Shown: positions 835-24,698 of the stretch, one piece after another | How positions within the stretch are numbered: the first letter of the stretch is position 1 | How the letters are laid out: each line of letters starts with the position of its first letter | IMG/VR virus record: IMGVR_UViG_644736385_000001 | Location: 1-27,552 of that record | Reading direction: 5' to 3' (one strand) | Length of the DNA: 27,552 nt | Source: a virus | Notes under the pieces: model-generated | Told to the model about the DNA's origin: nothing | Seen by the model: the letters and a program-made list of their open reading frames with translations, nothing else | The model's database searches: none | Made by a program: the position numbers and the translations under genes

Positions 835-924
835 GCAGGGGTAGCCAAGCCAGGACTACGGCGCTGGACTTGAGATCCAGTGGGGCTATGCCCCGCCTGG
901 GTTCAAATCCCAGCCCCTGCGCCA
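835..924 (+). tRNA. tRNA-Ser(TGA): tRNA-Ser (anticodon UGA), probable provirus integration target
   Basis: Acceptor GCAGGGG/CCCCTGC, discriminator G, encoded CCA, anticodon arm CTGGA-CTTGAGA-TCCAG, long variable arm GGGGC-TAT-GCCCC, T arm CTGGG-TTCAAAT-CCCAG. No intron. Confidence 0.97.
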
Positions 925-6677: not shown

Positions 6678-6708
6678 CTAATATCAATACAACAAAAAGG
6701 TGTTCGTT

Positions 6709-8173: not shown

Positions 8174-8182
8174 GGTGAGACA

Positions 8183-8509: not shown

Positions 8510-8522
8510 TTGAGGTGATTTT

Positions 8523-9281
8523 ATGGCTTTAACTGCAAGAGAGGCAGAGATTGTAAAGAAAGCATTTAAGCAAATACATGATTCTCAGAATTTCATTAGG
8601 AAAATCATGCCAAAACAGAAGATAGATAAAGACAAGGAAGTTTATACGGTTGAAACTATTGAATTGGATGAGTCAATTTTGTCAGAAACAAGTATGGAAG
8701 TTATTGAAATCCCTTATAAAACTTCATCAACATCTAAGAGAATATTTGATTTAGCCGCAAAATTAACAAGACCGAGAAGATTATTAACTCCTGACAATTT
8801 TACAAAATTAAGTTTAATGCTTGCTAAAATTATCACAAAATCTGAAAACTATTACGGAATTAATGAATTGCTAACTAATTCAACAGTTGAAAGTGCATCA
8901 AAATCTTGGGATGCTGCTACGCCGAAAGATATTGTTAAAGATATTCAAAATGCTGTTATTCAAATACAACAATACACTAACGCACCAATAAACATGGTTT
9001 TACCAACTTCAAAGGCGACTTACTTTAAAACACCAAATGATTATGGATTATCTCCTGAAAATCTACTAAAAGGGACTATTACAAATGTATTTATCACAAA
9101 TTTAGTTAAGGATAAGGCAATATTAGTTCCTGCAGACCCTACAGTTGTGTCTTTCAATGTGGCTGAGGATTTGAAAGTGGATAAAAAAGAGGATTTAAAC
9201 ACTGCAATTATTTGGGCTACTGAAGCAATCTGTCCAAGTGTTGATTTAAAAGAAGCGGTAATTGTATTGAGTGGAATTTAA
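8523..9281 (+). CDS. Major capsid protein, compact HK97 fold (inferred)
   Basis: Position after protease and decoration gene, strong GAGGTGA RBS, and an overall pattern compatible with short HK97/encapsulin-like capsids. Confidence 0.75.
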   Translation: MALTAREAEIVKKAFKQIHDSQNFIRKIMPKQKIDKDKEVYTVETIELDESILSETSMEVIEIPYKTSSTSKRIFDLAAKLTRPRRLLTPDNFTKLSLMLAKIITKSENYYGINELLTNSTVESASKSWDAATPKDIVKDIQNAVIQIQQYTNAPINMVLPTSKATYFKTPNDYGLSPENLLKGTITNVFITNLVKDKAILVPADPTVVSFNVAEDLKVDKKEDLNTAIIWATEAICPSVDLKEAVIVLSGI

Positions 9282-9284
9282 GGG

Positions 9285-9596
9285 ATGATTATGGTTGATG
9301 TTTCGGAAGTTTTAGCTAAGATGAAGCCACTCTTAGGAATGAGTGCTGATGAGGACTTTGCCAATCATGAACAAGCAGAGGCATCTGCAAACTTAGCAAT
9401 AAAAACATCCCAAGTTGAAGATGCTGACATTATTGCTATATTGGCTTGCTATTATTACACTGAATCAAGGGATATGAAAACTGACGAAAACGTTTCAGTT
9501 ATGGCTAATCACTTTTATAGAATGTATCAAATTGCTATTGAGGAAGCAAAACAGAAGGAATTAAATGAAGAAGAGGGGGCGGTGTTCTTTGACTAA
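9285..9596 (+). CDS. Head-tail adaptor/connector (inferred)
   Basis: About 100-aa acidic helical protein immediately after the capsid gene. Confidence 0.55.
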
Positions 9597-9888
9597 CTAC
9601 ACTAATGCAAAGGCGTTAGTTGAGGAAATCATCAATAAGCTAAAAGAATCTGGTGTTAAAGTTAAATCTCCTTTATCCAAAATTCAAGATTTCCATTGTG
9701 AGGCAGATTTTTCTATTGAGATTGAAAATAGAGTAGCTTATGTAGATGCAACATTTACTTTTGATAAACCACCAAATTCTAACATGGTTGAGAAAATTGA
9801 AGCAGTTATGACAACGTATAACTCTTATTTGGAAAGGATTGACTTTGAGGCAGATTATACTAAGTTAGAGTTTAGGAGCGTGAGATAA
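9565..9888 (+). CDS. Tail terminator/neck protein (inferred)
   Basis: Alpha/beta protein just before the tail tube gene. Likely start TTG 9589, after GAGGGGGCGGTG. Confidence 0.5.
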
Positions 9889-10592
9889 TGGTGCTTCCAA
9901 TTAGTATTCCAGACCAAAGTAATATTTTAGGTTCTGGAAAGTTGGCAATTTTTGGAGCTAAATCTCAAATTGATACATTTACAGGAGATGGGGCGACAAA
10001 GGAATTTTCATTAACAAAGGATAACGCTGTATTGGGTTCTGAGGTTGTAAAAGTTGATGGAGTTCCAAAGGTTGAGGGGACTGATTACACTGCTGTGCAT
10101 GAGAATGGTATTCTAAAAAGTATTAAGTTTAACACAGCTCCAGCAAATGGTGCAGTTATTGAAGTTGAGTATTTGTATTTGGATTTACCACTCGGAGGAG
10201 CTTCTGAATTGAGTTTGAAAGAGGATAAAGACAAGGAGGAGGTAAGTGTTGATTGTTCTTATTCAACTATTCAAATTGAAAAAGGGGCTAAGATATCATT
10301 TAGTTTTAAGGACTTGCTTACAGTTGGAGATATCAACTTAACATCCTATTTTACTGGAGAGATTGAAGAAGGGAGCAGTTATGTTAGGTATAAAAACGGA
10401 GCTTCAAAGAGTGGGAACATTGCCGTCTTAGCTTATTCAAAAGAGGCCACATTAGCTCATGGAAAGGAAGCTCCTAAAAGAATCATCTTAATCTATGGAG
10501 CTATGCCAAATAGCTTGGATATTGATATTTCTGGAGCTACGAAGAGTTTTGACTTGACAGCTCAGGCATACAGAGTTATTGACTTAAAATAA
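9888..10592 (+). CDS. Major tail (tube) protein with an inserted beta-sandwich domain
   Basis: Tube-like pattern (LGSGKLAI...LGGASELSL...ISFSFKDL...IILIYGA...FDLTA) interrupted by an FTGDGATKEFSL...VDGV...DYT...IKFNTAPANG..IEVEY module. Confidence 0.75.
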   Translation: MVLPISIPDQSNILGSGKLAIFGAKSQIDTFTGDGATKEFSLTKDNAVLGSEVVKVDGVPKVEGTDYTAVHENGILKSIKFNTAPANGAVIEVEYLYLDLPLGGASELSLKEDKDKEEVSVDCSYSTIQIEKGAKISFSFKDLLTVGDINLTSYFTGEIEEGSSYVRYKNGASKSGNIAVLAYSKEATLAHGKEAPKRIILIYGAMPNSLDIDISGATKSFDLTAQAYRVIDLK

Positions 10593-10601
10593 GGTGATTA
10601 G

Positions 10602-10967
10602 ATGAACAATCACTTAGAATTCTTAAAACAGTTAGATGAGAAGTTTAAGGAATCAGAACAAAAGAATCTCGAAGCATTAGAAAAAATTAGGTCTAATTTA
10701 CCTCAATTAGAAATTGAGATATTTGGAGAAAAATTAACGGCAATAATTCCACCACTCTCAGTAGAAAAGGAAATGATTGAAGATGCGAATAAATTAGACC
10801 CTTTGAACTTTGCATTAAAATACATCCCAATTTTATATGGCATTCCAAAAGAGAAAGTTGAGGAATTACCTTCGATTGTTATTGCAGAACTTATCAAGAA
10901 TTACTTTGAGGCTTATAAGAAGTTAAACCAGGATAAATCCTTTCGCAATAGAGTGGGCGTTAAGTGA
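10602..10967 (+). CDS. Tail assembly chaperone (G-like)
   Basis: Lies between tail tube and tape measure genes; AAGGTGA RBS; ends in tandem TGA TGA. Confidence 0.75.
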   Translation: MNNHLEFLKQLDEKFKESEQKNLEALEKIRSNLPQLEIEIFGEKLTAIIPPLSVEKEMIEDANKLDPLNFALKYIPILYGIPKEKVEELPSIVIAELIKNYFEAYKKLNQDKSFRNRVGVK

Positions 10968-11115
10968 TGATGCAACAGAACTTTATTTAGTCTGCAAATT
11001 CCTAAGAATCCCCCCAAGTGAAGCGATAAAGCTAAATAGGATGGATTACAACATTATATTAGGATTTGCAATTAGAGAATTGAGGGATAAGCTAAAATAT
11101 GGGGGGATTCTATGA
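10945..11115 (+). CDS. Unannotated +1-frame extension of the tail chaperone (GT-like product, about 170 aa in total)
   Basis: The +1 frame is open 10927-11115 and encodes AIEWALSDDATELYLVCKFLRIPPSEAIKLNRMDYNIILGFAIRELRDKLKYGGIL. It has no start codon before 11041, and its stop overlaps the next ATG (ATGA 11112-11115). TCC-TTT-CGC lies at 10938-10946. Confidence 0.75.
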   Translation, partial: AIEWALSDDATELYLVCKFLRIPPSEAIKLNRMDYNIILGFAIRELRDKLKYGGIL

Positions 11116-11483
11116 GATGGCTCACACCATTCGGTATGTTGTTCATAAGTGGGACGTATTATGGATTAATATTTTTTGGCTTAATTATGGAAGTTATTCA
11201 TAATGCATTGGTTAGTTTAGTTTTAGCATTTTTTGTAGTATTTGTATGGGATTTAATTTTGTCCATAATATATGGTTTAAGATTTGTTAAAGAAGGGGAA
11301 TATCTATATTTAGAATGGAATGGGCAGTTTCCAGACCCTTATGGATTGTTTGCAAGCACGTGCCTTTCAGCAGTGATTTGGACATATACAGATTCATTAT
11401 TATTGGGTTTAATTGTCCCAGTTATTGTTGTATTCTTAGGAAAGCAGTTAATGCGTGGATTGTATGAAAAAGTTAAAAGTTGA
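11112..11483 (+). CDS. Multi-pass membrane protein between chaperone and tape measure genes
   Basis: Three to four hydrophobic segments; GGGGGG RBS; overlaps both neighbours. Confidence 0.75.
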   Translation: MRWLTPFGMLFISGTYYGLIFFGLIMEVIHNALVSLVLAFFVVFVWDLILSIIYGLRFVKEGEYLYLEWNGQFPDPYGLFASTCLSAVIWTYTDSLLLGLIVPVIVVFLGKQLMRGLYEKVKS

Positions 11484-14004
11484 AGGAACTTTGGAATTGA
11501 AATTGGATGATAAAGATGTAAGGAAAAATCTAAAATCATTAGAAAAAATAAAATCAAAATTAGAGATAGAAGGTAATATCAACGCAATAATTAAGCAATT
11601 GGATGAGTTAAAAAATGTCAAATCAGAAGTTGAATTTAAGAGTAATATAAACATGATTATTAGGGAGTTGGAAGAGATAGAGGCAGAAGCATCTAAAATG
11701 AACATAAACTTTGATTATGATTTATCAAAACTAAAAAGTGAATTAGAACAATTGAAAAACACAAAAATCGATATTAAAACAAATACAGACTATATATTAA
11801 AACAAATCAATAAAATAAAAAGTGAATTATCTGAAAAACAAACAATTAGGGCAAAGGTTGAAGTGGATAGAACAGAATGGGATAAACTAAAGAAGGAATG
11901 GTCTGAAAAATATCACATAGATGCCATTGCAGATGTGGCAAGTGTAGGAACTGCATACATGGGGATTTCCGACGCTGAAAAATACAACGAACTAATAACA
12001 ATTTTAAGAGAAAGGGGTTTGACTAAAGACCAAGCAGAGAGGTTAATACAACTTGGCTTATATAACGGCTATTCTTTGGATGAAATTAAAGATGGATTAG
12101 GATATGCAAATGAGGCAGTTTTGAAGTTAGCAGCATCAAATGATAAATATGCGGCTCAAATATTGGCAGCAATGGCAATGGCTGAAAGGGGAGGTAGTGA
12201 GTCAGGAGCAGATGACATTAGAAGGATGATAACCGCACTCGCTGCTTTAGGGAAGTCAAATGAAGAAATAATGAAAATGGTGAATGCTGAAGTTTTAGAA
12301 ATGAAGCAAGGGCATACAGAAGTCGCAGAAGCAATTAGAGAATTCAGCATAACAATGGGAGATACCTTAGACCCAGAAACGTTTGCATCAATATTGATTC
12401 AGGCACAAGCAGCAGGGGCTCAAGATGTAGGGCAGTTAGCAGATGCCATAAATGCATTAGCGTTAAATGCAAGACAGATGGGATTTGATGTAAAAACTGC
12501 ACTAAAAGAGATTCAAAAAACAAAAGATGATAAAACATTGGCAGAGTTGGCAAAAAAATATGGCTTAACTTATGAACAAATAGTTAAAATTCATGATTAT
12601 TTACAGAGGGTAGATTTAGATAAGGGCTTGCCAGACAATACCAACGAACTTGATAGGTTAATAAGCATAAATAAAGACCAAAGGGGAATTTTAGAAACGA
12701 TTAAGCAGGATATTGAAGGGTGGTTAGCAGGTCATGGGTTTTTACAATATGGAGCAGAGCTTGGAGTAACTCTTGGAGGTCTTGGAAAAATACTTGAAAT
12801 AGCAATTGGTGCAGCAATTGGTTCTGCGTTAAAAGATGCTTTTGGTAAAATTAAATCCATATTTGGTAAAATTAGTTTGGATAATTTAAAACTTCCAGAA
12901 CTCTCAAAAATCAAATTACCTGTTGATTTAGAAATCCCAAAAATTCCAAAACTCCACATGCCTAAGATTAAACTGCCAGTAGATTTAAAACTACCTAAAA
13001 TTCCAGAAATCAACATACCAAAAATTAACCTGCCAAACATCTCTGGATTATCTAATGCATTTAGGGGTTTAGGTGAAGCTGTTAGGTTTGCTGGAAGAGC
13101 TTTTGGAGTTTTATCAGTAGTTATTGAGCCATTAAAACAACTATTAAAAGGAGATATACAAGGAGCTATAGAGCATTTAAAAATAGGGCTTATTGAATTA
13201 GCCGCATGGCCAGTTGCTTTGGGAGAGATGTTAGCAGCTGTTACATTAGCTGTTGGTGATTTCTTAGGATTGTTTGACTTAGATGGAGACAGTCCATTAG
13301 CAGCTGCAAGAGCTGGGATTCTAACACTCTTAGCAGCATTTGAAAGCATTTATTCATTTATCACTGGTGATTGGAGTGTTGTAACTAACACACTGCAAGA
13401 AGCGTTTGAAACACTTGGAATGAAAGAGGATGAAGCCAGACAAGCAGCTGAAAACTTAGCCCAGCAATGGCAACAATTACCTCAGCAAATATTAGACGCA
13501 TTTAATGGCTTTGTTGATAATATTAAACAAACATTTAATAGGTGGTGGTATGAATTGAATATATGGTGGTCTCAAAAAATAGAAGAAGCTAAGAACTGGG
13601 GTAGTGATTTGATTCAAAATATAATTGATGGAATAAAAAGGAAGTTTTCAGAGTTGAGGAATGCTGTAAGTCAAGCTGCGAGTATTATATCGAACTACCT
13701 ACACCATACCACACCTGAAACAGGCCCATTAAAAGACGATGATAAATGGGGAATCCACTTTATGGAAAACATTATTGGTGGAATTAGAAAAGAAATTCCT
13801 AACTTAAAGAAAACTATTGATTATACTGCTCAACTGATGAGCTCCGCAAATCCTAAAAATTGGAAAATTCAACAAGTAGGAATGACACACAGCACATCTT
13901 ACTCTTATGGAGATATACACATAAATGTAGTTGGAAATAGCTTTAATGAGCATCAATTAGCTCAAAAAATTGCTTTAATTCTAAAAAGACAACAATTCAG
14001 ATAA
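11455..14004 (+). CDS. Tail tape measure protein
   Basis: About 850 aa, Ala/Gly-rich helical core, Trp-spaced C-terminal repeats (WWYELNIWWSQKIEEAKNWGSDLIQNIIDGI) and the typical ending GDIHINVVG...LAQKI. Likely start ATG 11464. Confidence 0.9.
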   Translation: MDCMKKLKVEGTLELKLDDKDVRKNLKSLEKIKSKLEIEGNINAIIKQLDELKNVKSEVEFKSNINMIIRELEEIEAEASKMNINFDYDLSKLKSELEQLKNTKIDIKTNTDYILKQINKIKSELSEKQTIRAKVEVDRTEWDKLKKEWSEKYHIDAIADVASVGTAYMGISDAEKYNELITILRERGLTKDQAERLIQLGLYNGYSLDEIKDGLGYANEAVLKLAASNDKYAAQILAAMAMAERGGSESGADDIRRMITALAALGKSNEEIMKMVNAEVLEMKQGHTEVAEAIREFSITMGDTLDPETFASILIQAQAAGAQDVGQLADAINALALNARQMGFDVKTALKEIQKTKDDKTLAELAKKYGLTYEQIVKIHDYLQRVDLDKGLPDNTNELDRLISINKDQRGILETIKQDIEGWLAGHGFLQYGAELGVTLGGLGKILEIAIGAAIGSALKDAFGKIKSIFGKISLDNLKLPELSKIKLPVDLEIPKIPKLHMPKIKLPVDLKLPKIPEINIPKINLPNISGLSNAFRGLGEAVRFAGRAFGVLSVVIEPLKQLLKGDIQGAIEHLKIGLIELAAWPVALGEMLAAVTLAVGDFLGLFDLDGDSPLAAARAGILTLLAAFESIYSFITGDWSVVTNTLQEAFETLGMKEDEARQAAENLAQQWQQLPQQILDAFNGFVDNIKQTFNRWWYELNIWWSQKIEEAKNWGSDLIQNIIDGIKRKFSELRNAVSQAASIISNYLHHTTPETGPLKDDDKWGIHFMENIIGGIRKEIPNLKKTIDYTAQLMSSANPKNWKIQQVGMTHSTSYSYGDIHINVVGNSFNEHQLAQKIALILKRQQFR

Positions 14005-14006
14005 AG

Positions 14007-14573
14007 GTGATATTTATGCCAGCAGGACCTGAACAGTCACAATCACTTGTAGCAAAAATAAATCAATTGGTATTACTTGGAAAAGGGACGTTTGTTTATT
14101 GTGAATTTGATTCACAGGCAACTGAATCAGATAAAGCACTTACAATTGTCGATAACACAATAAGATTTAACTTACCTCCGAATTATTACCCAGTTATAGT
14201 TGATATTGTAGCCGTAGATGAAAATGGTAATGAAATTTATGGAATTCCAATTAGTAAAATAACATACGATTACGATGAATTACCACAAGGTAACCGTCAA
14301 GTGATTGCAGAACCCTCAGAAAACAATACAATTGACGAATCCAAACATTGGATTGCTTATGTGGTCTGTATTGGAATCGACGACACCAAACCAATTGTTG
14401 ACGTAAAAAGTCAAAGTGGTAGCGTTGAACCAAAGGGGAGAATATACCTCATTAATTATAGTGATACTAACGGAACAGATGAAATAACGATACAATACTT
14501 TAATGGAACATCGGAAACAATAACTGTCGATAAAGCCAACTTATGGACAGTGAATCCATACACATTGGGGTAA
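14007..14573 (+). CDS. Putative tail-tip protein, beta-rich
   Basis: Directly follows the tape measure gene; AGGTGA RBS suggests ATG 14016; no recognised family. Confidence 0.55.
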   Translation: MIFMPAGPEQSQSLVAKINQLVLLGKGTFVYCEFDSQATESDKALTIVDNTIRFNLPPNYYPVIVDIVAVDENGNEIYGIPISKITYDYDELPQGNRQVIAEPSENNTIDESKHWIAYVVCIGIDDTKPIVDVKSQSGSVEPKGRIYLINYSDTNGTDEITIQYFNGTSETITVDKANLWTVNPYTLG

Positions 14574-14591
14574 TGTAAAAGTGGTGATATT

Positions 14592-15641
14592 ATGTCCCCA
14601 ATCCTCTCTAACACCAATTCTTTTTTGTCAAACAGTGATTACAGTGACGGTAACACTAACAGTGGGCAAACCAATAGTTCCACACAACCTATTTTGTCAA
14701 ACACATCAAATGTGTTATATAATACAGTGCAAACAAGCCAGACACCAACAACAAACACAAGCACTGCGACTCCAATATTATCAAATGCGGCTGATACACT
14801 TTACAATACAATAGCAACAAAACAATCAAATTCAGCTACAAATGTAACAACACCAATATTGTCAAATATGGCTAATATGCTTTACAACACTATATTATCA
14901 GCAAAACAATCAAATTCAGATTCAAACATCACAACACCAACATTGATGAACGCGTCAAATGCACTTACTAATACAACAATAACAACAACTCAACAGACAA
15001 CTACGCCAACGCCAAGTGTAACAGTTATAGAACACAAAGTTTGGAGGGAAGGAAACACTGTTTATTCAAAAATCGTTTATTCTGATGGAACAGAAGATTT
15101 AAAAACATTAGATTTAACCGATTATTACAATGAAGCTTATAACGAAGGTGTAAATAGTGTTGATTTTAGTAAAACAAATCATACAATTGAAAATGGAATT
15201 ATCAAAGTAACAACTACACTAACTAATGGAAAATCACAAGAATATGCTATCACTCTTGATGAAAACTTAATTGTTAGTTTGTATAATCAAATTATGGCAA
15301 ATAGAAGTAGTTGTTTCCAAATTAGACAAAATGAAACAGAATATAGCTTTTTAGTTGAAAGCAGACAGTATCAGCCACAACCAAACTTAGCATATCAGCC
15401 CGCAGTTGATGGAACACCGGTCTATGAAATTTTAGGAAAAGAGCAAAAAACGTGGAATTTCACACTTTATGTTGATACTATCCCAAAAATGCAGTTTCTT
15501 CAACAGTTAGCAAGTAATCCAGTATGTGAAGTATATTTCGATGAAATTGATGATTGGAAACAGGCGTTAATCACTTCCATAAGCTTGACAAGAATAACTA
15601 CTGGACATTACTATGCCGATATTGAACTGGTGATTTTATGA
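14592..15641 (+). CDS. Tail protein: N-terminal Thr/Asn/Ser-rich repeats plus C-terminal distal-tail (Dit)-like domain
   Basis: Repeats of PILSN..N.LYNT at about 26-30 aa spacing. The last ~110 aa (YQPAVDGTPVYEILGKEQKTWNFTL...ITSISL) have a Dit-like pattern. Confidence 0.6.
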   Translation: MSPILSNTNSFLSNSDYSDGNTNSGQTNSSTQPILSNTSNVLYNTVQTSQTPTTNTSTATPILSNAADTLYNTIATKQSNSATNVTTPILSNMANMLYNTILSAKQSNSDSNITTPTLMNASNALTNTTITTTQQTTTPTPSVTVIEHKVWREGNTVYSKIVYSDGTEDLKTLDLTDYYNEAYNEGVNSVDFSKTNHTIENGIIKVTTTLTNGKSQEYAITLDENLIVSLYNQIMANRSSCFQIRQNETEYSFLVESRQYQPQPNLAYQPAVDGTPVYEILGKEQKTWNFTLYVDTIPKMQFLQQLASNPVCEVYFDEIDDWKQALITSISLTRITTGHYYADIELVIL

Positions 15642-16192
15642 AGACAATAATAGTTGATAAATCAGTTTCCTTAAATATAGAGTATTCAATTAATGCCATT
15701 GACCAGTGTAATATAACTTCATTAAAGGATTTACAAATCCAACCTTTCGATAGTGTAGAGGTTATCTGGAATGATAAGACAATTTTTAGAGGATATTGTA
15801 TAGATGCAAGATTATCTCAAGCATTTGGACAACAACAGTATGAATACACAATAAACTCTCCATTGTGGATATTATCTCAGCAAAAAACAGATGCGAAGAC
15901 AACCTTTTTACAACTGTTTTTACAAGAATGTTGTGATTTATGTGATTTGGAGTTAGATTATCAATTTTCAACAAATCCACTTATTTACATTGAAGAAGGT
16001 AAGTATTTTGATGCATTGAAGAAATGTATTTTATACACAAAAAACTACAATACGAGGTTTTATGTCGATTATGACCAAAACAAACTAATTTTCACTGACA
16101 AAATAGATGATGATAAGTTCTACCCATTGGCAAAATGTGTAGGTTACGAATTTGAATGGGACACAGAAATTATAAACCAAGTTATATGGTGA
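15638..16192 (+). CDS. Baseplate hub (Tal/gp27-like) N-terminal part (inferred)
   Basis: Pattern IFRGYC...YTINSPLWIL...FYVDYDQNKLIF...DTEIINQV; ATGA overlap with the upstream gene. Confidence 0.55.
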   Translation: MKTIIVDKSVSLNIEYSINAIDQCNITSLKDLQIQPFDSVEVIWNDKTIFRGYCIDARLSQAFGQQQYEYTINSPLWILSQQKTDAKTTFLQLFLQECCDLCDLELDYQFSTNPLIYIEEGKYFDALKKCILYTKNYNTRFYVDYDQNKLIFTDKIDDDKFYPLAKCVGYEFEWDTEIINQVIW

Positions 16193-18555
16193 AGAGTATG
16201 GTTCAACTAAATGCTACTGGTTATGTTTCAAATTATAATTGGGAAAAAAGAATATTTGATGCTGTTTGTTACACATCTAATGAAGTTCAAATTGGTCAAA
16301 TTACACCGCCACCAAAAGGTTGGTTGATTGTCGATAGTGCAATTTGTCAATCACCAGATAGCGGACCTCTTCGCTATTATTCTGAAGTTCCTGTAACCTC
16401 AACGTACATTCTAGAAGATTATAGGGGTAATAGATCGATAGCAGCAATAATACGAGGGGATATTAACGCTCCTGACAAAAAAGAATATATTACCGTCAGA
16501 ACTGTTGGATTCGATATATCTGCACAATTCAATATTGTTGAAACTGTAAAGTCTTCGGGAGTATTAAGGGTTGAATTACCACCTGTACACATAACTGATG
16601 AGATTGAAATCGTCTATCACTTCCATACTGAATCATTCGAAATAAACATACATAGGGATAATTCGAACAAAAACTGTTGGATTGAATTTCTTGACTATTT
16701 CAACCCAGATAACTATAAAAGTTCTTTTATAACAAATTTGCCTAAAAAACCTGATGATGAAGATATGGCAGTTTTAATTGATGGTGTAACATTAAGCGGT
16801 GAGGTTATTTTTGAAGTTACGGCTGGGAATGAAAAACGGTATGTAAGAGTACATTTTGATGACTTTGAACTTGAAATAGACCCAATATATATTGCAGAAG
16901 TTTATACCATCTCCAATTACGGTCTACTGGTAGATATATTTGGAATAGTTTACTATGTAGGAGGGTTGACAAGTTTTATACTACCGCTTGTTCCACATTT
17001 CTATATTAGAGTGGACGATGTTGCCATACCGATTGAAATTGAATACCAAGCCAATTTCAAATGCAATGGTGGTTCTAAACAGTATTCCAAACGGCAAATA
17101 ATAACGGATGGAGGGTTGTTTGTTCCAATATTGCCAGCAAGTGAAGGAATAACAGATACTACCGTCAATGCCTGGGGAAGGTGGGTATTAAACTGGACAA
17201 AAAATGGAGACACATTTACATTCACATTCAAAAACTTCACATATTCAGTTTATGACTATGATTGGCTACAGTGTGATGATGTCAAGGCAGAAATAGAACA
17301 TAAAATCGTCTTACATTACGTTGATGGTTCTACTAAAGAGTTTGACCTTGAACCTGTTGTTGCTACAAGTGATGTATGTTCTCAACTGCCAAAGAAAGAC
17401 GTTTTTGCTGAATCATTTGATTCGATAACACCTGCCTGTGTTTGTTATAGAAACAGCGAAGCATCAAAAACAGTTACTTACACAATTAGTTATTTTACGA
17501 GAGATTATAATCCAAAGCTTTACAATATCAAATATTCACTCCTTAGAGTTTATTATGATGATGTTATTTTGTATGACGGTGTTGCGAAAGAAGAGATTAC
17601 GATAACGTTCAATTTACCAGAAAATACTGTGAAGCACGTGGTATTCGAGCTATATGGTGATGGATATGTTGCAGATAGAAAGACTGTCATTGTTGAAAGG
17701 CGACAATACTGCCACGCTATAAACATAAATGCCAAGACCTATGATTTAGAAGGTAATGAAACAAACAAATTCCCTCATCCAACAAGTGCAGATTATGATG
17801 AAAATAAACACTCTGAAATAATTGTCAAAATCAAAATAAAAGATGAACAGGGGAACTACATTGATGTTCCAGTTGATAAAATCAAAACCAATTGGCAATA
17901 CAACGTAGAGAAAGTAGATACTGGCGTCTATCAAATGAAAATACTAAACACTGCCGATAATGCACTGAATATCCAAGATTATGGAATATCGGTTTATATT
18001 GATAAACAATGGTGCAATGAAAACGGTTACTACAACAAATATAACATTGAAGCTGAAAACATAATAATAAATAGCGACAAAATAGAAAAGATTGGATTAT
18101 GGAATTTTAACGGCATCGACCATTATGAAAACGGTGTAACCTATCTAAAACAGAAATATGAAAAAGTTTCTGGAATATTTGTAAATCCAATTGTTGAATT
18201 CTCCATAGTAGAACAACTAAACAAAGAAAGAGATAGGTGGCAATATTCATACTGTTATAGGATTTATGACAGTCCAATGGAATTGAATCTACCAACTTAC
18301 ACAGATGAGGAAAAGAAAGAACTTGCTAAGGCAATAGTAAGAGAAATGGGAAAACCAAGAAAAATAGAAACCTTCACAATATTATCAAAAGAGATTCCCA
18401 AAATCAATTCATCAATTACTGTAAATTATAATGGGCAACTAATTTCAATGCCTGTATATTCTGTAAGATTCAGTTTAGAAAACTCGAACATTCAAATTCA
18501 AATAAGAAACGACCAATTAAAATTGTTGAAAGATTATCTATCACTAATTAAATAA
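16156..18555 (+). CDS. Large tail-tip/adhesin protein
   Basis: About 790 aa, beta-rich in Tyr/Ile/Val, last gene of the virion operon. GGTGA RBS suggests ATG 16198. The C-terminus resembles hub C-terminal domains. Confidence 0.6.
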   Translation: MGHRNYKPSYMVKSMVQLNATGYVSNYNWEKRIFDAVCYTSNEVQIGQITPPPKGWLIVDSAICQSPDSGPLRYYSEVPVTSTYILEDYRGNRSIAAIIRGDINAPDKKEYITVRTVGFDISAQFNIVETVKSSGVLRVELPPVHITDEIEIVYHFHTESFEINIHRDNSNKNCWIEFLDYFNPDNYKSSFITNLPKKPDDEDMAVLIDGVTLSGEVIFEVTAGNEKRYVRVHFDDFELEIDPIYIAEVYTISNYGLLVDIFGIVYYVGGLTSFILPLVPHFYIRVDDVAIPIEIEYQANFKCNGGSKQYSKRQIITDGGLFVPILPASEGITDTTVNAWGRWVLNWTKNGDTFTFTFKNFTYSVYDYDWLQCDDVKAEIEHKIVLHYVDGSTKEFDLEPVVATSDVCSQLPKKDVFAESFDSITPACVCYRNSEASKTVTYTISYFTRDYNPKLYNIKYSLLRVYYDDVILYDGVAKEEITITFNLPENTVKHVVFELYGDGYVADRKTVIVERRQYCHAININAKTYDLEGNETNKFPHPTSADYDENKHSEIIVKIKIKDEQGNYIDVPVDKIKTNWQYNVEKVDTGVYQMKILNTADNALNIQDYGISVYIDKQWCNENGYYNKYNIEAENIIINSDKIEKIGLWNFNGIDHYENGVTYLKQKYEKVSGIFVNPIVEFSIVEQLNKERDRWQYSYCYRIYDSPMELNLPTYTDEEKKELAKAIVREMGKPRKIETFTILSKEIPKINSSITVNYNGQLISMPVYSVRFSLENSNIQIQIRNDQLKLLKDYLSLIK

Positions 18556-18597
18556 ATCCAAATTAATAAATGTAAATTGGAAATAAAAAATAAAAAA

Positions 18598-18915
18598 TCA
18601 TTTAAATCCAAATAACAACTTTATCAACTCGATGGCGTTAGGATTAGTTATAATTATAGCAAATAGGATAATCAAAGTGTGAATAATAAGCTTATATTCC
18701 AACTCTTTTTTAACCATGTCAATCTTTCCCTCTAAATATTTAACATCCTCCTTCGTAGCTAACTCTCCTCTTAACTCATCCTTTAACTCATTCTTAACTT
18801 CTATCTTTCCTTCTTTCATTAATTCAATTATTACATCATAAAACTCCCGTGCCTCCTTCTCATCCTTAACCTTTTTAAGAATCAACTCATATAATTTAGC
18901 ATAGGCAATAGCCAT
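18598..18915 (-). CDS. Coiled-coil protein with LATKED motif and C-terminal membrane anchor (DUF1640-like)
   Basis: ELATKEDVKYLEGKI followed by hydrophobic LIIHTLIILFAIII; GGTGGTG RBS. Confidence 0.7.
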   Translation of the reverse strand: MAIAYAKLYELILKKVKDEKEAREFYDVIIELMKEGKIEVKNELKDELRGELATKEDVKYLEGKIDMVKKELEYKLIIHTLIILFAIIITNPNAIELIKLLFGFK

Positions 18916-18982
18916 AACACCACCACGTAATCATTAATTCCTATTATTGACTCAAAGTATATTAAAGTTATTGATTTGGAAA

Positions 18983-19237
18983 TTATTTTAAACGCTCTTT
19001 TAACTCTTTGATTGTCTCTTCATTAAATTTTAGTATTTTTAAACAGTTCTCAATCTCAATCTTTAATAACTCTTCTGTTAATTTACAGCCCTTACCCCTA
19101 ATTAAGTTTAAAGTCCTCTTATAATCTGCTATTTTATTCCTCAACTGTTTATTCTCTCTTTTCAAATGATTTATTTTAATAATCAACTCTATTCTCTCAG
19201 TTCTACATTTATGCTTTATTGACATAAACACCACCAA
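18983..19237 (-). CDS. Small basic coiled-coil protein
   Basis: GGTGGTG RBS (start probably ATG 19225); heptad pattern. Confidence 0.6.
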
Positions 19238-19264
19238 AAAAGTTTTAAGTTTTAAAAAAAAGAA

Positions 19265-20197
19265 TTATTTAGTTATTGAAATCTCATCCCCCTCCCTTAC
19301 AACCCTACAAATCCTTGATAACTTTCCAACAACTCTACTCCTCCATGCAATCACATCAACAACTGTTTTATTTGGCTTCTGCTCCATTATAATAGTCCTA
19401 TAAATCTCCTTCACGAAAAAACTACCTTTATCACCAAACGGGTCAGTAACTATAAACTTTTTTCCACCATATTGGAAATATTCCGTTTTATTCATCTCAG
19501 AAGTTGGTTGATTGGTAACCAAAGCATAGCAGTCATTTTCCACACAATAATCCTTTAAAGCGTATAAAATAGCTTGAACATTCAACAACACATTACCTTT
19601 ACCCCTCATATTTGCAACTGCAAACTTTCCAAGAGCTGGAAGCCCTACAGAATCCAAAACCAAATAATTATATCCTTCTGGAAGCTTTTCAGTTATGAAT
19701 TCAACAAGCTTATCAAAGTTAATTATGCACCTGTAATCACATCCAGAAGATTTCAATAACTCCCTCTGCTTTTTGGTCATATTTCTTTCAGTGTCAATAT
19801 ACATGACTTTATTTCCAGCCTTTGCCTTTTCTAAAGCCCAGTTAAAAGCTATAAACGTTTTCAAACTTCCAGTATCTCCAAACAATTCAATTATATCAGG
19901 GTCCTCTAAGTTTGCCTCTAAGATGCTAAAATCAACTTTTATTCCATTCTTTACCTCTTTCTTTTCCATGGTAACGCCATTCTGCCCATTCACAGTTCTC
20001 ACCTTCTTATAATCATCTAAAAGTTTCAACTCCTTCAACCACATCACAAAAGCCCCCTTTTCATCCAACAACCCCTTACTTGCTTTAACCCTATCCATCA
20101 CTTGCTTTCTAATTTCGTTGGGATTAATCTCCGCACCATAAACCTTCTTGTGAATAACTGCCGCTCTTAGGTAATTAACTTCTACATCTGTAGCCAT
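19265..20197 (-). CDS. RecA/RadB-fold ATPase (Sak4-like recombinase candidate) with an extra N-terminal helical domain
   Basis: IIELFGDTGSLKT (Walker A), VMYIDTE, YLVLDS (Walker B), ALVTNQ. Confidence 0.88.
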   Translation of the reverse strand: MATDVEVNYLRAAVIHKKVYGAEINPNEIRKQVMDRVKASKGLLDEKGAFVMWLKELKLLDDYKKVRTVNGQNGVTMEKKEVKNGIKVDFSILEANLEDPDIIELFGDTGSLKTFIAFNWALEKAKAGNKVMYIDTERNMTKKQRELLKSSGCDYRCIINFDKLVEFITEKLPEGYNYLVLDSVGLPALGKFAVANMRGKGNVLLNVQAILYALKDYCVENDCYALVTNQPTSEMNKTEYFQYGGKKFIVTDPFGDKGSFFVKEIYRTIIMEQKPNKTVVDVIAWRSRVVGKLSRICRVVREGDEISITK

Positions 20198-20438
20198 TCA
20201 AATCCCTCCGATTAACTTTCAATCTTTTCATCAACACTTTTCTTCCATCTGATTCCAACACCTGCTTTCTAACCTTCTTAAACATCTTCACACCAACTTT
20301 TTGAACTTTAATATCATTAGCCAAAGCTTCAATAGCCTCCTTCCTTTCTAAGAATTCTTTACGGCTTTTAGCACAGCCATAAGAAACAGCCCTCCCAGCT
20401 TTTAAAACGATAAAATAAATCCTACCTTTTGAAGCCAT
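20175..20438 (-). CDS. Hypothetical basic protein
   Basis: GAGGGAGGGA RBS, coupled to the ATPase gene. Confidence 0.6.
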   Translation of the reverse strand: MASKGRIYFIVLKAGRAVSYGCAKSRKEFLERKEAIEALANDIKVQKVGVKMFKKVRKQVLESDGRKVLMKRLKVNRRDLNGYRCRS

Positions 20439-20565
20439 AATCCCTCCCTCGCTTATCCCCTCTCCCCTTTATCACTCCAAAAAACGACTTTCTACCGTTA
20501 TTCTCAATAACATAAGTCTGCTTAATCCTGCCATTTTCTTGCTTACTAAATGCCAATATTTGCAT
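20422..20565 (-). CDS. 47-aa ORF below the track cut-off (MQILAFSKQENGRIKQTYVIENNGRKSFFGVIKGRGDKRGRDYGFKR)
   Basis: AGGTGGG RBS; fills the gap between the histone gene and the 87-aa gene and overlaps the latter. Confidence 0.5.
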   Translation of the reverse strand: MQILAFSKQENGRIKQTYVIENNGRKSFFGVIKGRGDKRGRDYGFKR

Positions 20566-20631
20566 ATTCCCACCTAAGGATTTATTAAGGCAAAATATTT
20601 AAGAGTAGAAAATTAGAAAAACAAAAAGTGC

Positions 20632-20916
20632 TTAGGCAGTTATCTCTGCAACTGATACTCCATAAATCTCCTCAATCAACGCAGCTAAATACCCATTATC
20701 TTCTATAGCTTCGATTATATCCTCCTTCTTTATGGTTTTCCTTCCTGATTTTTGTGCATTCATTCTTGCTTTAACTAAAATCTCAACCAAAATCTTTTGC
20801 AAGTGGTTGTTAAGTTCCTCAACAGCATCATTAGAAATCCTAAAATCATAACCACTCTCAGGATAATTATCAGCAATATTTTTCATAACCCTCTTCAAAG
20901 TTGCCTTAGGAATCAT
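20632..20916 (-). CDS. Archaeal histone variant (HMf fold, MJ1647-like) encoded by the provirus
   Basis: [10 protein letters not shown] (helix 1), RIS.DAVEEL (loop 1/helix 2), [14 protein letters not shown] (loop 2/helix 3); AGGTGA RBS; C-terminal extension. Confidence 0.92.
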
Positions 20917-21167
20917 ACTCTCACCTCATGCTTTTCTTTAATTCTACTTACAAAACCAGCCCTCAAATCAATAATCTTATTAGGAAAATCAGCAATCATC
21001 TTAACAATCCAATCCGCAACCTCTTCAGCATCTCCTTTAGCCTTTATTTTAACCTCTCCACCACTGTATTTGATTATAATAAGATTTCCAAAACTCGAAA
21101 TCTCCTTAATCTCATTAACATTAATCCTCTTAGTTTCACTGCCCTTTTTAACAACCAAAAACTTCAT
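20913..21167 (-). CDS. Hypothetical protein, first gene of the leftward early operon
   Basis: GAGGTGGAGGG RBS supports ATG 21167 (MKFLVVKK) rather than 21215; ATGA overlap with the histone gene. Confidence 0.65.
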
Positions 21168-21205
21168 AATCAACCCTCCACCTCTTTTTATAAACAATAA
21201 ATAAT

Positions 21206-21330
21206 GGGGCTTCATCCCGCCCCGTCTTTTTTAAAAAAAATTATTAGATGTGGGGGAGGGGTTTAGTGTTTCGGGGCTTACATCCCACCCAAGGGGTCCC
21301 AGCAGATAAAGCTGGTTATCCTCAGGTGGT
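21206..21330 (-). ncRNA. Candidate structured leader or small RNA
   Basis: 21247-21330 is 47/84 G+C in an otherwise AT-rich window. Contains hairpins CCAGC-N7-GCTGG and GGGGC-N8-GCCCC, a repeated GGGGCTT(A)CATCCC motif, and a T8 run on the minus strand (21233-21240). Confidence 0.45.
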
Positions 21331-21339
21331 CATTTAATA

Positions 21340-21382
21340 CTTACAATTTAATAGTTGTAAGCTTACAATTATAAAATTGTAA
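21340..21382. promoter_or_regulatory. Two tandem palindromic operators TTACAA-N8-TTGTAA
   Basis: Copies at 21341-21360 and 21363-21382, 22 bp apart, overlapping the expected start site of the leftward promoter. Confidence 0.7.
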
Positions 21383-21388
21383 TATAAA

Positions 21389-21402
21389 TATAAAAACCTT
21401 TC
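21389..21402 (-). promoter_or_regulatory. BRE-TATA promoter of the early operon
   Basis: Minus strand GAAAGG-TTTTTATA. Confidence 0.7.
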
Positions 21403-21450
21403 TCTCTAAATTTGTTAATTGATGATATTAAAAAAGTTAATAACCATAAT
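21394..21450 (+). repeat. Imperfect ~56-bp direct repeat A, copy 1 (copy 2 at 21911-21966)
   Basis: Shared AAACC.TTCTC.CTAAATTTGTTAAT.G..GATATTA.AAAAGTTAATAAC. Confidence 0.85.
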
Positions 21451-21498
21451 CAAAAAATAGCAAAACAATCATCATAAAAATTATAAAATAAACCTGGG

Positions 21499-21726
21499 AT
21501 GATTATGGATGAAAAACGGAAGCTTTTATTTGACAAAATAGCTAATGCTGGAATAGTTTTTGTAGGATACGAATTTTTATTTATGTTGTATGTCATCCTA
21601 AATACTGCATCTGGAATGATGACCTTGCACATGGGAGTTGTGCTATTTATTGGAGATGCCATTGCAATACTAATAACAATCTGGCTATTATGTGCAATAT
21701 TGTATGACATCTATAAAAAGCTTTAA
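21499..21726 (+). CDS. Small two-helix membrane protein
   Basis: 75 aa with two hydrophobic segments. Confidence 0.6.
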   Translation: MIMDEKRKLLFDKIANAGIVFVGYEFLFMLYVILNTASGMMTLHMGVVLFIGDAIAILITIWLLCAILYDIYKKL

Positions 21727-21848
21727 TTAGTTTCTAATGCTTTTTTACCTCCTAATTTGAAATACCACACATACAACCCCAATGATAATAAAACAATCAA
21801 TCCCAAAGAAGCCAAACCCATAAGTGTAACTATAGTTTGATTATCCAT
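21723..21848 (-). CDS. 41-aa single-pass membrane peptide, not in the ORF track (MDNQTIVTLMGLASLGLIVLLSLGLYVWYFKLGGKKALETN)
   Basis: GAGGTTGA RBS and an upstream TATATAAA; one transmembrane helix followed by GGKK; its stop overlaps the stop of 21499-21726. Confidence 0.65.
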   Translation of the reverse strand: MDNQTIVTLMGLASLGLIVLLSLGLYVWYFKLGGKKALETN

Positions 21849-21910
21849 AAACATCAACCTCTTTTTTGCTACTATAATCTTATATTGAAAGTTGATTTTA
21901 TATATTTTGG

Positions 21911-21966
21911 AAACCTTCTCCTAAATTTGTTAATGGCAGATATTATAAAAGTTAATAACAAATAAT
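21911..21966 (+). repeat. Direct repeat A, copy 2
   Basis: Matches 21394-21450. Confidence 0.85.
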
Positions 21967-22912
21967 GACATTATTAAATTTTTTCTATTGGACTCAAAAG
22001 CAACATATTTATATAGAAGTTAAACCCATAAAGACATTTAAAAACAGCAATCTCTGTTTTTATCTGAGGGAACTCGTTATGGATATCTTATATATTTTAG
22101 TAGCATTAGGTTTAGGAGTAATGGGTATTTTAGGATATTTTGCAACAGTTGCTGGAGTAATTCAATTTGGAGAATATATCTTAAAATTTAAAAAATTGTT
22201 AGCCCGTAGTGTAGCTATTAAAAGAGTTATCTGGTGGGCAATCAACAAAGAAATCCATATTGAATTTAAAAGTAATAAAAAATACCTTGAAAAAATTAAC
22301 CCTACACAAAAAGATTTAACAAACATTAGAAAAATCGTAGTAGATATATTCACCAAAGAGTTTGGAGGAATAAACAAAGATTCTGGAAGAATGGGAGTTA
22401 ATTACATACTCATAATTCCAAAAGAATTCAACATTCCCGTTGAAATCAGTATTCTCCCAAATATAGAATTAGACCTATCATTAGATTATGAAGATTTAAA
22501 AAAATATTCAAAACTCATGCAAGACCAATATATCAAAGAATATGGTGACATTCTACCAAGTGATTTAGGTAGAGAATGTCATATAGGGACCGCAATCAGC
22601 ATAAACTTATTTGGGACTTTAGTATTCACCTATAGGAAAACTAAAAACTATGAAAAGCTTTTAAATGTCATCGATAAAATATACTCAAAAATAGAAGAAT
22701 ATTATGGACTTCATAAACCATTTCATGAAGAATACCGCTTAAAACTGAAAGTATCTGAAAATGTAATACAATCAGAAATCCACCCAATTAAAATCAGAGA
22801 ATCAGATTTCTCAGTTACTATTAAAGACACAAAAGTAGTAATATGGTCAAAAACTATAAATTATTTGAGAGATGCAATTAAAAATTACCTATTGAAAATA
22901 CCCATACTCTAA
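21965..22912 (+). CDS. Membrane-anchored protein of unknown function
   Basis: Probable start ATG 22079 (GAGGG RBS), giving an N-terminal TM helix (ILYILVALGLGVMGILGYFATVAGVI) and a ~240-aa soluble domain. Confidence 0.7.
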   Translation: MTLLNFFYWTQKQHIYIEVKPIKTFKNSNLCFYLRELVMDILYILVALGLGVMGILGYFATVAGVIQFGEYILKFKKLLARSVAIKRVIWWAINKEIHIEFKSNKKYLEKINPTQKDLTNIRKIVVDIFTKEFGGINKDSGRMGVNYILIIPKEFNIPVEISILPNIELDLSLDYEDLKKYSKLMQDQYIKEYGDILPSDLGRECHIGTAISINLFGTLVFTYRKTKNYEKLLNVIDKIYSKIEEYYGLHKPFHEEYRLKLKVSENVIQSEIHPIKIRESDFSVTIKDTKVVIWSKTINYLRDAIKNYLLKIPIL

Positions 22913-23676
22913 AATGTCATATAATCTTCTAAGTAGTTCTCAATGACTTCTAATACTCTTTGATTGGCTTCCATATCTGAATCATACTTTTTATATAGGG
23001 TAATCGTTCCTTTTTTAGTTACTCTAACCTTTATTATCTCATTATCCATATCTATTTTTAATCCTAAAAATCCCTTCTTGGTGTTACTAACCTCAGAATA
23101 TAACTCATCGTCTATATCTATATCCTCCCCATACATCGTTCCACTATGGACGCTTCCGGTCCTACCTTTGAAACTAAGCCCCCACATACCTGCTCCAATA
23201 ACTCCATTTCTTAAATCTTCCTCAAGTTTTTCAACTAAAAAAGTAACTGGCTTAATGCCATTCTTCCTTTTAAACAACATATAGGATAATTCTGCTAAAC
23301 CATCTCCCTCTATACGTGAGTTTTTAAATAAGATGTAATTTTGGTCTAAATATAACGACATCCAAAAATCAATTGTAAATGTCCTTCTAATAATTCTACT
23401 ACTCTCCTTAATTTGTATCTCATGATTTCCAATCTGTTCTATTTCATAATCTATAATTGGGAACTCTATCTGATAATATAATCTGCCCCCCACATATTCA
23501 ATATCGTTAGATGCAGATACTACTGGAGGGTCAAATACAATAACTTTATATAATTGATACTCTTTACCATCTATTGTGTCCAAGACTTTATTTTTACCTA
23601 AGATTTCTTCAGGGTCTATAACTATAGAAGAATCTACAGCACACACCCACCTGTTAGTAAAACTCAAACACACCAC
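22909..23676 (-). CDS. Acidic soluble protein of unknown function
   Basis: 255 aa, GTG start with GTAGGTG RBS and an upstream AAAAGCTTATATA promoter-like box; convergent with 21965-22912. Confidence 0.75.
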   Translation of the reverse strand: MVCLSFTNRWVCAVDSSIVIDPEEILGKNKVLDTIDGKEYQLYKVIVFDPPVVSASNDIEYVGGRLYYQIEFPIIDYEIEQIGNHEIQIKESSRIIRRTFTIDFWMSLYLDQNYILFKNSRIEGDGLAELSYMLFKRKNGIKPVTFLVEKLEEDLRNGVIGAGMWGLSFKGRTGSVHSGTMYGEDIDIDDELYSEVSNTKKGFLGLKIDMDNEIIKVRVTKKGTITLYKKYDSDMEANQRVLEVIENYLEDYMTF

Positions 23677-23798
23677 CTACTAAAAATACTTTAACTTTAT
23701 AATTTTAACATTAAAAAATATATAAGCTTTTTGATTAATCACTCTTTTACATTGACATCTCATAGGACCAGCAGACAACACACCAAAAAAGAGAAAGG

Positions 23799-23825
23799 TT
23801 ATTTTACAGTCAAATCATAGCATTT
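23799..23825 (+). repeat. Exact 27-bp direct repeat B, copy 1
   Basis: TTATTTTACAGTCAAATCATAGCATTT, also at 24795-24821; both copies are preceded by ATAGGACCAG and AAAAAAGAGAA. Confidence 0.93.
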
Positions 23826-23942
23826 ATAAAATCATTTAAATATGCCCTCGTTTAGTTAGTAATACTCACTATATAAAGTGGATATGAACACCACATAATT
23901 GAGGTATTAATGGAAACTTTTTAATACAACATATCACAACAA

Positions 23943-23974
23943 TACTATAGTAAAACTATGGTTTTACTATAGTA
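23943..23974. promoter_or_regulatory. 32-bp inverted repeat upstream of the DUF4258/DUF2283 pair, candidate operator
   Basis: TACTATAGTAAAAC-TATG-GTTTTACTATAGTA, perfect 14-bp arms. Confidence 0.7.
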
Positions 23975-24007
23975 GGATAATAACCATACAAACCATCAAA
24001 ACTACAG

Positions 24008-24349
24008 GTGGTAAGAAGGGGCAACATGGATATTGATGAGGTTATTGAAATATTATCAGAAATAGAAGAAGAAAATATAACTATAACAAACCATTTTATA
24101 GAAAGATGTGAAAGTAGAAAAGATAAACTTCCCAATATATCTAAAATAAAAAATATGCTATTAACTCAAAAACCTGTAGGAATCTTAAAGCAGAGCGGGA
24201 ACAAATTCCGATTATATTATGAACTCGATGAAAAATATGACCTAATCATTGTTATTAGTGTTTGGAATACCAATCCTATAGAGATAAACTTAGTAACCAC
24301 TTACCCACAAGAGAAAAAGAAAAGGGAGAGGAAAGATGAAAGAATATAA
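24008..24349 (+). CDS. DUF4258-like (RelE/BrnT-fold) putative toxin
   Basis: ITNHFIERC...KFRLYY...LIIVISV...INLVTTYP pattern; start may be ATG 24026. Confidence 0.7.
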   Translation: MVRRGNMDIDEVIEILSEIEEENITITNHFIERCESRKDKLPNISKIKNMLLTQKPVGILKQSGNKFRLYYELDEKYDLIIVISVWNTNPIEINLVTTYPQEKKKRERKDERI

Positions 24350-24698
24350 AGCAACAAACTTAGATTATGACATGAGAAACGACAGCTTATATATCTACAC
24401 AAAAGGGAAAGAATATAAAGGTTCATTAGACTTAGGGGATATTATAATTGACTTCAGCGAAGATGGAAGTCCTAAGGGAATTGAGATATTAGATGCCTCA
24501 AAAAAATTCAAAATCCCAAAATATGACCTAAAAAATATCGTAAGCTTTAATAGCATAATAGAAATTACAAAAGACGTTGTAAAAATAGAAATGAAAATTA
24601 CAGTATTGAAAAGAAATAAAGAAGTGGAAAAATCAATTATTGCTAAGGGCTTAAACGAGATGAACTTAGCAGAAGGCATAGCAACAATGACATGCTAA
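24336..24698 (+). CDS. DUF2283-like putative antitoxin
   Basis: YDMRNDSLYIY...DIIIDFSEDGSPKGIEILDASK is the DUF2283 signature; overlaps the upstream gene. Confidence 0.85.
   Translation: MKEYKATNLDYDMRNDSLYIYTKGKEYKGSLDLGDIIIDFSEDGSPKGIEILDASKKFKIPKYDLKNIVSFNSIIEITKDVVKIEMKITVLKRNKEVEKSIIAKGLNEMNLAEGIATMTC

Follow-up and report, generated by a model that had tools for sequence, protein, structure and literature searches.

The DNA analysed here, positions 1 to 27,552 of the IMG/VR virus record IMGVR_UViG_644736385_000001 (the window, 27,552 nucleotides in all), belongs to a head-tailed provirus of 31.3 kb that is integrated at a tRNA-Ser gene of a hyperthermophilic methanogen, and in a leftward cluster of non-structural genes it encodes a 94-residue histone-fold protein, which is the subject of this work. 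The host genome amounts to 1,507,251 bp, divided over two contigs (1,485,061 and 22,190 bp). The provirus carries genes for TerL, a portal/MuF protein, an HK97-like capsid protein and a tape measure protein, and its structural module occupies positions 7064-18555 on the plus strand. The end of the tRNA-Ser gene serves as attL, and a perfect 56-bp copy at G000:C1:1480545-1480600, about 4.6 kb past the end of the window, represents attR, the spacing between the two being 31.26 kb. The right end of the provirus, which lies past the window (L070, G000:C1:1476025-1482000), holds an MCM helicase, an RNase-H-like exonuclease, a DUF2540 protein and a tyrosine integrase adjoining attR. The packaging and structural genes, the att repeats, and the helicase and integrase at the right end bear out the proviral origin that an earlier note on this DNA had assumed.

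The histone gene lies exactly where the earlier note had placed it, at 20632-20916, and its coding strand is the minus strand; read on the plus strand, the same interval contains many stops. Profile searches recognised the protein as a histone, with 40.3 bits and an E value of 4e-10 for PF00808 (CBFD_NFYB_HMF; gathering score 21.4) and 39.3 bits for PF00125 (gathering score 26.4), while the NCBIfam model NF043032 archaea_histone gave 49.5 bits (E 4.3e-13) against a cut-off of 50, a shortfall of 0.5 bit that is probably due to an insertion in loop 1 (L1). An AlphaFold2 monomer model, calculated from a 22-sequence alignment, reached a predicted local distance difference test score (pLDDT) of 90 and a predicted template modelling score (pTM) of 0.71, and is composed of α1 (residues 4-17), L1 (18-28), a long central helix α2 (29-56), loop 2 (L2, 57-63) and α3 (64-73), followed by a tail with one helix at 75-85 and a short one at 89-93. 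Every match retrieved for this model by Foldseek and VIA-align was a histone fold. The motifs K8-R9, F25-R26-I27-S28, R59-K60-T61-I62-K63 and E65-D66 are all present, and the DNA-contact set is intact, consisting of R9 in α1, R26 in L1, R59-K60-T61, K63 and the R59-D66 clamp; alignments A1 and A2 show little or no variation at R9, R26, R59-K60-T61 and D66. Thus, the description of the protein as a complete histone fold with DNA-contacting motifs stands. Its best match in the PDB was 8bdk, the structure of HmvA/MJ1647 (arCOG02145), with an E value of 3.5e-9 and 48-52% identity over the fold, which agrees with the resemblance to MJ1647 seen beforehand; the alignment spans viral residues 1-71 with a single 8-residue gap at loop 1, and the tail remains unaligned. 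The viral histone and HmvA also have the N-terminus MIPKAT/MLPKAT in common. To our knowledge, HmvA/MJ1647 is the sole histone for which DNA bridging has been shown experimentally.

With the canonical histones (HMfA/B, HTkA/B and A1-A3 of M. jannaschii) the viral protein shares the three-helix fold, the R-K-T motif of L2, the R-D clamp and the arginines of α1 and L1, but it differs from them in its dimer-dimer interface and in 27 extra residues, which make up the L1 insertion and the tail. The insertion amounts to 8 residues in comparison with both MJ1647 and the canonical histones, not about 7 as first counted, and in the model it is divided between a lengthened α1 and a lengthened L1. The L1 arginine R26 is present in all mobile-element copies as well as in the canonical histones, whereas the 13 chromosomal HmvA sequences in alignment A1 have Asn at this place, save one with Tyr. 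At positions 53, 56 and 69, equivalent to L46, H49 and L62 in the dimer-dimer four-helix bundle of HMfB, the viral histone has N53, K56 and E69 where the canonical histones of the host have L/H/L (L/H/A in the third paralogue, L003). In HmvA, the first of these positions is N, the second is K or R in most cases, and the third varies. Since the four-helix-bundle residues are thus replaced as they are in HmvA, the viral protein should not form canonical hypernucleosomes.

The tail extends 21 residues past α3 (24 if counted from I71, as in the earlier note) and is shorter than that of MJ1647, which has about 33, as had been suspected. The tetramerisation module of HmvA consists of α4 and α5 and takes up about 27 residues or more. 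For MJ1647 homologues, Ofer et al. (2023, PMC10516927) report a strictly conserved salt bridge between K80 and E95, which they confirmed by reversing charges and by trapping with disulphides. When a 13-residue stretch of the viral tail was aligned to residues 84-96 of MJ1647, the hydrophobic positions matched and E91 was paired with E95, at a score of 24 that was reached by 17 of 2000 shuffles (mean 14.7, sd 2.9). In addition, HmvA and every mobile-element copy have the ending V-x-x-[AS]-E-[LI]. We infer that the viral tail helix is homologous to α5 of HmvA, so that both proteins would end in a helical C-terminal extension whose last helix has the same hydrophobic core positions and an equivalent of E95. 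The hydrophobic face of the viral helix is broad (Y76, L77, L80, I81, I84, Y85, V87, V89 and I92) and must be buried, which could occur in a dimer-of-dimers, on a partner protein, or by folding back in the manner of αC in NF-YB or H2B. The best full-length structural matches of the monomer model in VIA were of the NF-YB/H2B type with αC (82 residues aligned, Z 9.2-9.7), tied with H3-type folds at a Z of about 9.

The host genome contains five histone genes, namely three canonical ones (67 residues), one chromosomal HmvA orthologue (97 residues) and the proviral one, whose product is 52% identical to the HmvA paralogue over residues 1-69. A search of 16 other genomes of the genus likewise found one chromosomal HmvA in each; a histone of the proviral type besides HmvA was present only in G016 (90% identity), and G014 has an extra copy on its second contig. 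To place the viral gene, a maximum-likelihood tree was rooted on canonical histones and included 28 chromosomal HmvA sequences from both families of the order. These 28 formed one clade with a support of 98/93 and with the viral copies outside it; the same clade without viral copies was obtained at 99/100 on fold-only columns after removal of the two longest branches, and forcing the viral copies into a clade with the HmvA of the genus cost 26.7 log-likelihood units (approximately unbiased (AU) test, p 0.009), values that are to be read with the short alignments (65-97 columns) and a possible long-branch pull towards the outgroup in mind. The two monophyly results and the AU test rule out a recent capture of the host HmvA gene. 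By these trees, the viral histone belongs to a mobile-element lineage that is the closest sister of chromosomal HmvA/MJ1647 and not a member of it.

We also considered the opposite direction of descent, in which the mobile-element lineage was the source and HmvA is a domesticated virus or plasmid histone that later acquired α4 and the K80-E95 lock, its L1 arginine being lost. This we regard as rather unlikely; the data are compatible with it because the plasmid and viral copies branch between the canonical histones and the long HmvA stem in the canonical-rooted tree, have the L1 arginine of the canonical type and bear shorter tails.

A profile search of 5.8 billion proteins returned seven clusters with at least 105 bits, after which the scores dropped to 60 bits or less, and a scan of 1.84 billion representatives gave two matches below 1e-10. 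Wherever context exists, the members of the lineage sit on mobile elements: the provirus of G016 (IMG/VR UViG_646311944_000001) together with a metagenomic relative, 90-93% identical; a 21-kb contig with a tape-measure gene; a plasmid (27 kb) from Methanocaldococcus sp. 16A that encodes MCM, an integrase and an exonuclease; and short contigs from vent metagenomes that consist of small unannotated open reading frames (ORFs). The plasmid histone (P0016) is of the same lineage, with 49% identity and the same terminal motif, while the proviral form differs from the histones borne on plasmids or other extrachromosomal elements of Methanocaldococcus in its longer L1 insertion and longer acidic tail. 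The set of MCM, exonuclease and histone is common to the provirus and this plasmid. The histones of the present and the G016 provirus agree in 90% of their residues, and their genes in 88% of the nucleotides, against 25-48% identity for the other shared proteins, one 101-residue ORF excepted. This identity reflects constraint, that is, purifying selection, since the ratio of non-synonymous to synonymous divergence (dN/dS) of the two copies is 0.128 despite marked divergence at silent sites (dS 0.40). HmvA being its nearest named relative, the gene might be taken for a recently acquired host HmvA that merely hitch-hikes with the provirus and has no viral role; such an account is hardly credible, given the exclusion of the viral gene from the HmvA clade, the low dN/dS (0.13) and the retention of the gene across at least four distinct elements with indels of their own.

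The features surrounding the histone gene are listed in Table 1.

Table 1. Features at the histone locus and at the left attachment site (window positions)
Feature	Position	Strand	Details
tRNA-Ser(TGA)	835..924	plus	3' 56 nt (869-924) form attL
105-aa ORF	18598..18915	minus	hydrophobic C-terminus; last of the leftward cluster
84-aa coiled-coil ORF	18983..19237	minus	65% identical homologue near the histone on plasmid G014:C2
310-aa RecA/RadA-superfamily ATPase	19265..20197	minus	RadB/Sak4-like core, residues ~85-250
87-aa ORF	20175..20438	minus	no family; weak homologue at the same position in G016
47-aa ORF	20422..20565	minus	no family; downstream of the histone
TATA-like box TTAAATATTTT and Shine-Dalgarno (SD) AGGTGGGA	20566..20610	minus	conserved; precede the next ORF
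T5GT5 tract	20617..20627	minus	begins 4 nt past the histone stop; kept in all four elements
Histone-fold gene, 94 aa	20632..20916	minus	ATG 20916-20914, TAA 20634-20632
SD GAGGTGAGAG of the histone	20918..20927	minus	one base (T20917) before the ATG; identical in four diverged elements
ORF upstream of the histone	20913..21167	minus	no family; 84 aa when started at the ATG at 21167, which has an SD before it; 100 aa when started at 21215
Promoter region (TATA-like 21381-21396) and GC-rich leader of ~190 nt of the leftward cluster	21206..21402	minus	function inferred

The histone is the second of seven close-packed minus-strand ORFs that run from 21167 to 18598. Its ATG overlaps the stop of the upstream ORF (ATGA), an arrangement by which the two genes are, on the evidence of sequence, translationally coupled; the upstream slot differs in each element and holds unrelated ORFs in G016 (221 residues) and L040 (252 residues). 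Four elements share a conserved block that opens with the SD, takes in the histone ORF, the T5GT5 tract and the TATA-like box, and extends over the SD of the following ORF to its start codon. The tract is a candidate archaeal oligo-T terminator, and the region of TTAAATATTTT and AGGTGGGA is a possible internal promoter. With a conserved oligo-T just past the histone stop, transcription may end, at least partly, before the ATPase gene. Co-transcription with a RecA-fold recombinase, on which the earlier note had built its functional proposal, is therefore doubtful, as the tract, the TATA-like box and a fresh SD all follow the histone stop in four diverged elements. The placement of the gene in an early operon is likewise conjectural. 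The RecA-fold neighbour itself was correctly recognised: two ORFs further down lies the 310-residue protein, which matched RecA, RadA, DMC1 and RAD51 with E values of about 1e-7 and the RadB model with 1e-8, and 11 of 20 members of its family matched AAA_24.

Both G016 and the 21-kb viral contig repeat the order of histone, small ORF and ATPase slot. What occupies this slot in the two other viruses (L045:559-1284 and L043:2993-3724) has only the N-terminal ~70 residues in common with the ATPase, and the C-terminal domains of these proteins gave no family match, as if domains had been exchanged within a recombination module. On the plasmid, the histone sits between MCM and exonuclease, and altogether it adjoins replication or recombination genes on four different elements; these recurrent neighbours suggest a role of the histone with the element's DNA replication or recombination. 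A search of PHROGs gave a weak match of unknown function for the histone and none for its small neighbours or for the neighbours in G016, L043 and L040, and blastn of the histone region against a phage collection, from which records close to the window may be missing, returned no match.

Upstream of the cluster, the GC-rich leader contains a hairpin (GGGGC...GCCCC) and a T-run and has about 70% nucleotide identity to the G016 provirus; an Rfam search of positions 18400-24000, leader included, found no credible family. A 39-nt direct repeat (90% identity) occurs at 21406-21444 and 21921-21959, each copy being followed on the minus strand by GAGAAGGTTT and a TATA-like box, and the two copies look like the paired operator/promoter regions of a provirus control region. 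This setting raises the question whether the histone is a local viral regulator, that is, a small and possibly site-preferring repressor or architectural factor at the control region that maintains or switches lysogeny and resembles NF-Y rather than bulk chromatin. A single ORF separates the gene from the leftward promoter and leader, the duplicated element that precedes two TATA-like boxes is close by, the conserved oligo-T directly after the gene suggests a short promoter-proximal transcription unit, and among full-length structural matches those to NF-YB-type folds with an αC helix came out best. However, the structural scores are tied, with Z differences below 1, the plasmid and the other viruses hold the gene in different regulatory surroundings, and no DNA motif is tied to the viral histone, so that we consider a regulator of this kind unlikely.

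The position of the gene bears equally on a role in the virion, where the protein would be packaged with the DNA in the capsid and condense the genome. Capsids of tailed viruses package naked DNA at near-crystalline density, which speaks against this idea, as do the location of the gene outside the structural module, within the leftward non-structural cluster, and the existence of a homologue on a plasmid without capsid genes. Although giant-virus histones are packaged in virions (cited in PMC11390915), we find a virion protein very improbable here.

Taking fold, interface, tail and neighbourhood together, we think it somewhat probable that the protein is a virus-borne DNA-binding homodimer that forms no canonical hypernucleosomes, uses its acidic and hydrophobic α5-like helix for a second interaction and acts on the element's own DNA. 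Homodimers of the histone fold would contact some 30 bp of DNA by way of the L1-L2 and α1 sites and would be unable to polymerise into canonical hypernucleosomes. The hydrophobic, strongly acidic one-helix tail would then make a second interaction. A dimer-of-dimers is its likeliest form, bridging DNA or compacting it locally with a geometry unlike that of HmvA; alternatively, the tail would dock a partner protein. The likely target would be the DNA of the element itself in replication, recombination or establishment. Such a 'bring your own nucleoid protein' strategy would compare with that of the plasmid-borne H-NS-like proteins of bacteria. Bacterial plasmids encode H-NS-like 'stealth' proteins, and truncated H-NS antagonists also exist. 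The likeness is that of a mobile element carrying a variant of a bridging nucleoid protein of its host, and it serves as a hypothesis, without weight as evidence; H-NS-like proteins have an unrelated fold and belong to another domain of life.

Several observations weigh against this proposal. The viral tail is without the α4 segment (about 12 residues), leaving the α5-like helix alone, and the residue equivalent to K80 is Y76 (E in P0003), so that E91 has no K80 salt-bridge partner; an HmvA-type tetramer is therefore not guaranteed, and with the position of the viral histone outside the HmvA clade, the tetramer and the bridging of MJ1647 are not simply transferable to it. From residue 65 onward, α3 and the tail contain 8 acidic and 0 basic residues (no Lys or Arg), a net charge of -8, whereas the equivalent segment of HmvA is balanced with 9-10 basic and 9-10 acidic residues, and such an acidic segment could instead point to partner binding or auto-inhibition. 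In the tail, moreover, the pLDDT of the model drops to 67-80, and judging from the model a fold-back of the tail helix without oligomerisation, as seen for αC in NF-YB or H2B, is possible. Finally, the link to replication or recombination derives from gene neighbourhood only, that is, from guilt by association.

The same tail could also be read as a weapon against the chromatin of the host, its α5-like helix inserting into the tetramerisation module of host HmvA and capping or breaking bridges in a dominant-negative manner, or its acidic residues binding the basic faces of host histones; by either route, silencing would be relieved or the host nucleoid remodelled after induction or infection. 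The match to the α5 core and E95 of HmvA in the absence of α4 and K80 is the pattern of a partial interface mimic, the tail carries the net charge of -8 noted above, and a possible target is at hand in the chromosomal HmvA of the host genome and of the 16 other genomes of the genus. HmvA was found to block promoter access in vitro (PMC10516927). Against an antagonist, the DNA-binding fold is complete and, at a charge of +6 to +8, exceeds that of HmvA in basicity, for which a protein acting purely as a decoy would have no use, and the divergent paralogues A3 and MJ1647 do not cross-oligomerise (Ofer et al., PMC10516927). We judge an antagonist to be improbable, and the homodimer acting on the element's own DNA remains the reading that we prefer.

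Histones of the MJ1647 type (Mc histones) have been called exclusive to Methanococcales (PMC10516927; Schwab et al. 2024, PMC11390915), and the available parts of these two papers make no mention of viral or plasmid copies. Mining of IMG/VR has shown that Caudoviricetes predicted to infect Methanobacteriota encode archaeal-like histones, and the Caudoviricetes histones of that study, archaeal-like and other, include six named clusters, MFVH, VTTH, VFFH, VHHH, BBVH and VKH (bioRxiv 10.1101/2024.12.06.627149); as far as the available text of this preprint and of PMC11390915 goes, no Mc/HmvA-like viral cluster is named. These proteins and the 'phage histones' of PMC11390915 resemble the present one in being histone folds of tailed viruses, and for several of them tetramers held together by a C-terminal helix, with bridging of DNA, are predicted, but the tetramerising viral classes are truncated in α3 and lack RxTxxxxD, while the present protein has a full α3 and the motif. 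The protein MJECL29 of an extrachromosomal element of M. jannaschii is a canonical paralogue according to Ofer et al. (PMC10516927), and it was not retrieved with the viral histone as query in the three-replicon genome G004. The NCBI annotation lists the G016 orthologue as a histone-domain protein and the protein of the sp. 16A plasmid as histone-like. A transcriptome paper on M. fervens (PMC10560149) names a 'histone family protein' but does not specify which. The view that histones are rarely reported in tailed archaeal viruses is therefore partly outdated, both by the Caudoviricetes histones of the preprint and by the annotated G016 orthologue. A Methanocaldococcus mobile element with a histone-fold gene is thus already on record; in the parts of the literature available we found no account that treats it as a separate lineage, sister to HmvA, in which L1 and the tail have been remodelled.

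What emerges is a sister lineage of HmvA that lives only on viruses and one plasmid of the same hosts (Methanocaldococcus) and is under purifying selection. The viral histone offers a natural dissection of the tetramerisation module, with α5 in place without α4 and K80 and an acidic in place of a balanced tail, and it bears on the origin of histone variants by capture or by domestication. The provirus may be the isolated virus MFTV1 (about 31 kb) of Methanocaldococcus fervens AG86; if so, a cultivable virus-host pair would be at hand in which the use of a histone to an archaeal virus could be addressed directly, whether it organises the viral genome, regulates lysogeny or tampers with host chromatin.

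Some further features of the window lie away from the histone locus. The host gene flanking attL (1-747, plus strand), just 5' of the tRNA-Ser gene, encodes a KTI12/PSTK-type kinase (PF08433, E 3e-63). The 101-residue ORF that stands out between the two proviruses is a coiled-coil protein at 6700-7005 on the plus strand, with 87% identity in the G016 provirus and 70% on the viral contig L043, its neighbours having only 25-48%. Within the 349-residue tail-module ORF at 14592-15641, an 84-nt tandem duplication (70% identity) occupies positions 14803-14970. At 24008-24698 on the plus strand, overlapping small ORFs gave a weak match to a PBECR4-like nuclease (E 0.005) and a match to DUF2283 (E 7e-14), and this pair could be a toxin-antitoxin or defence cassette.

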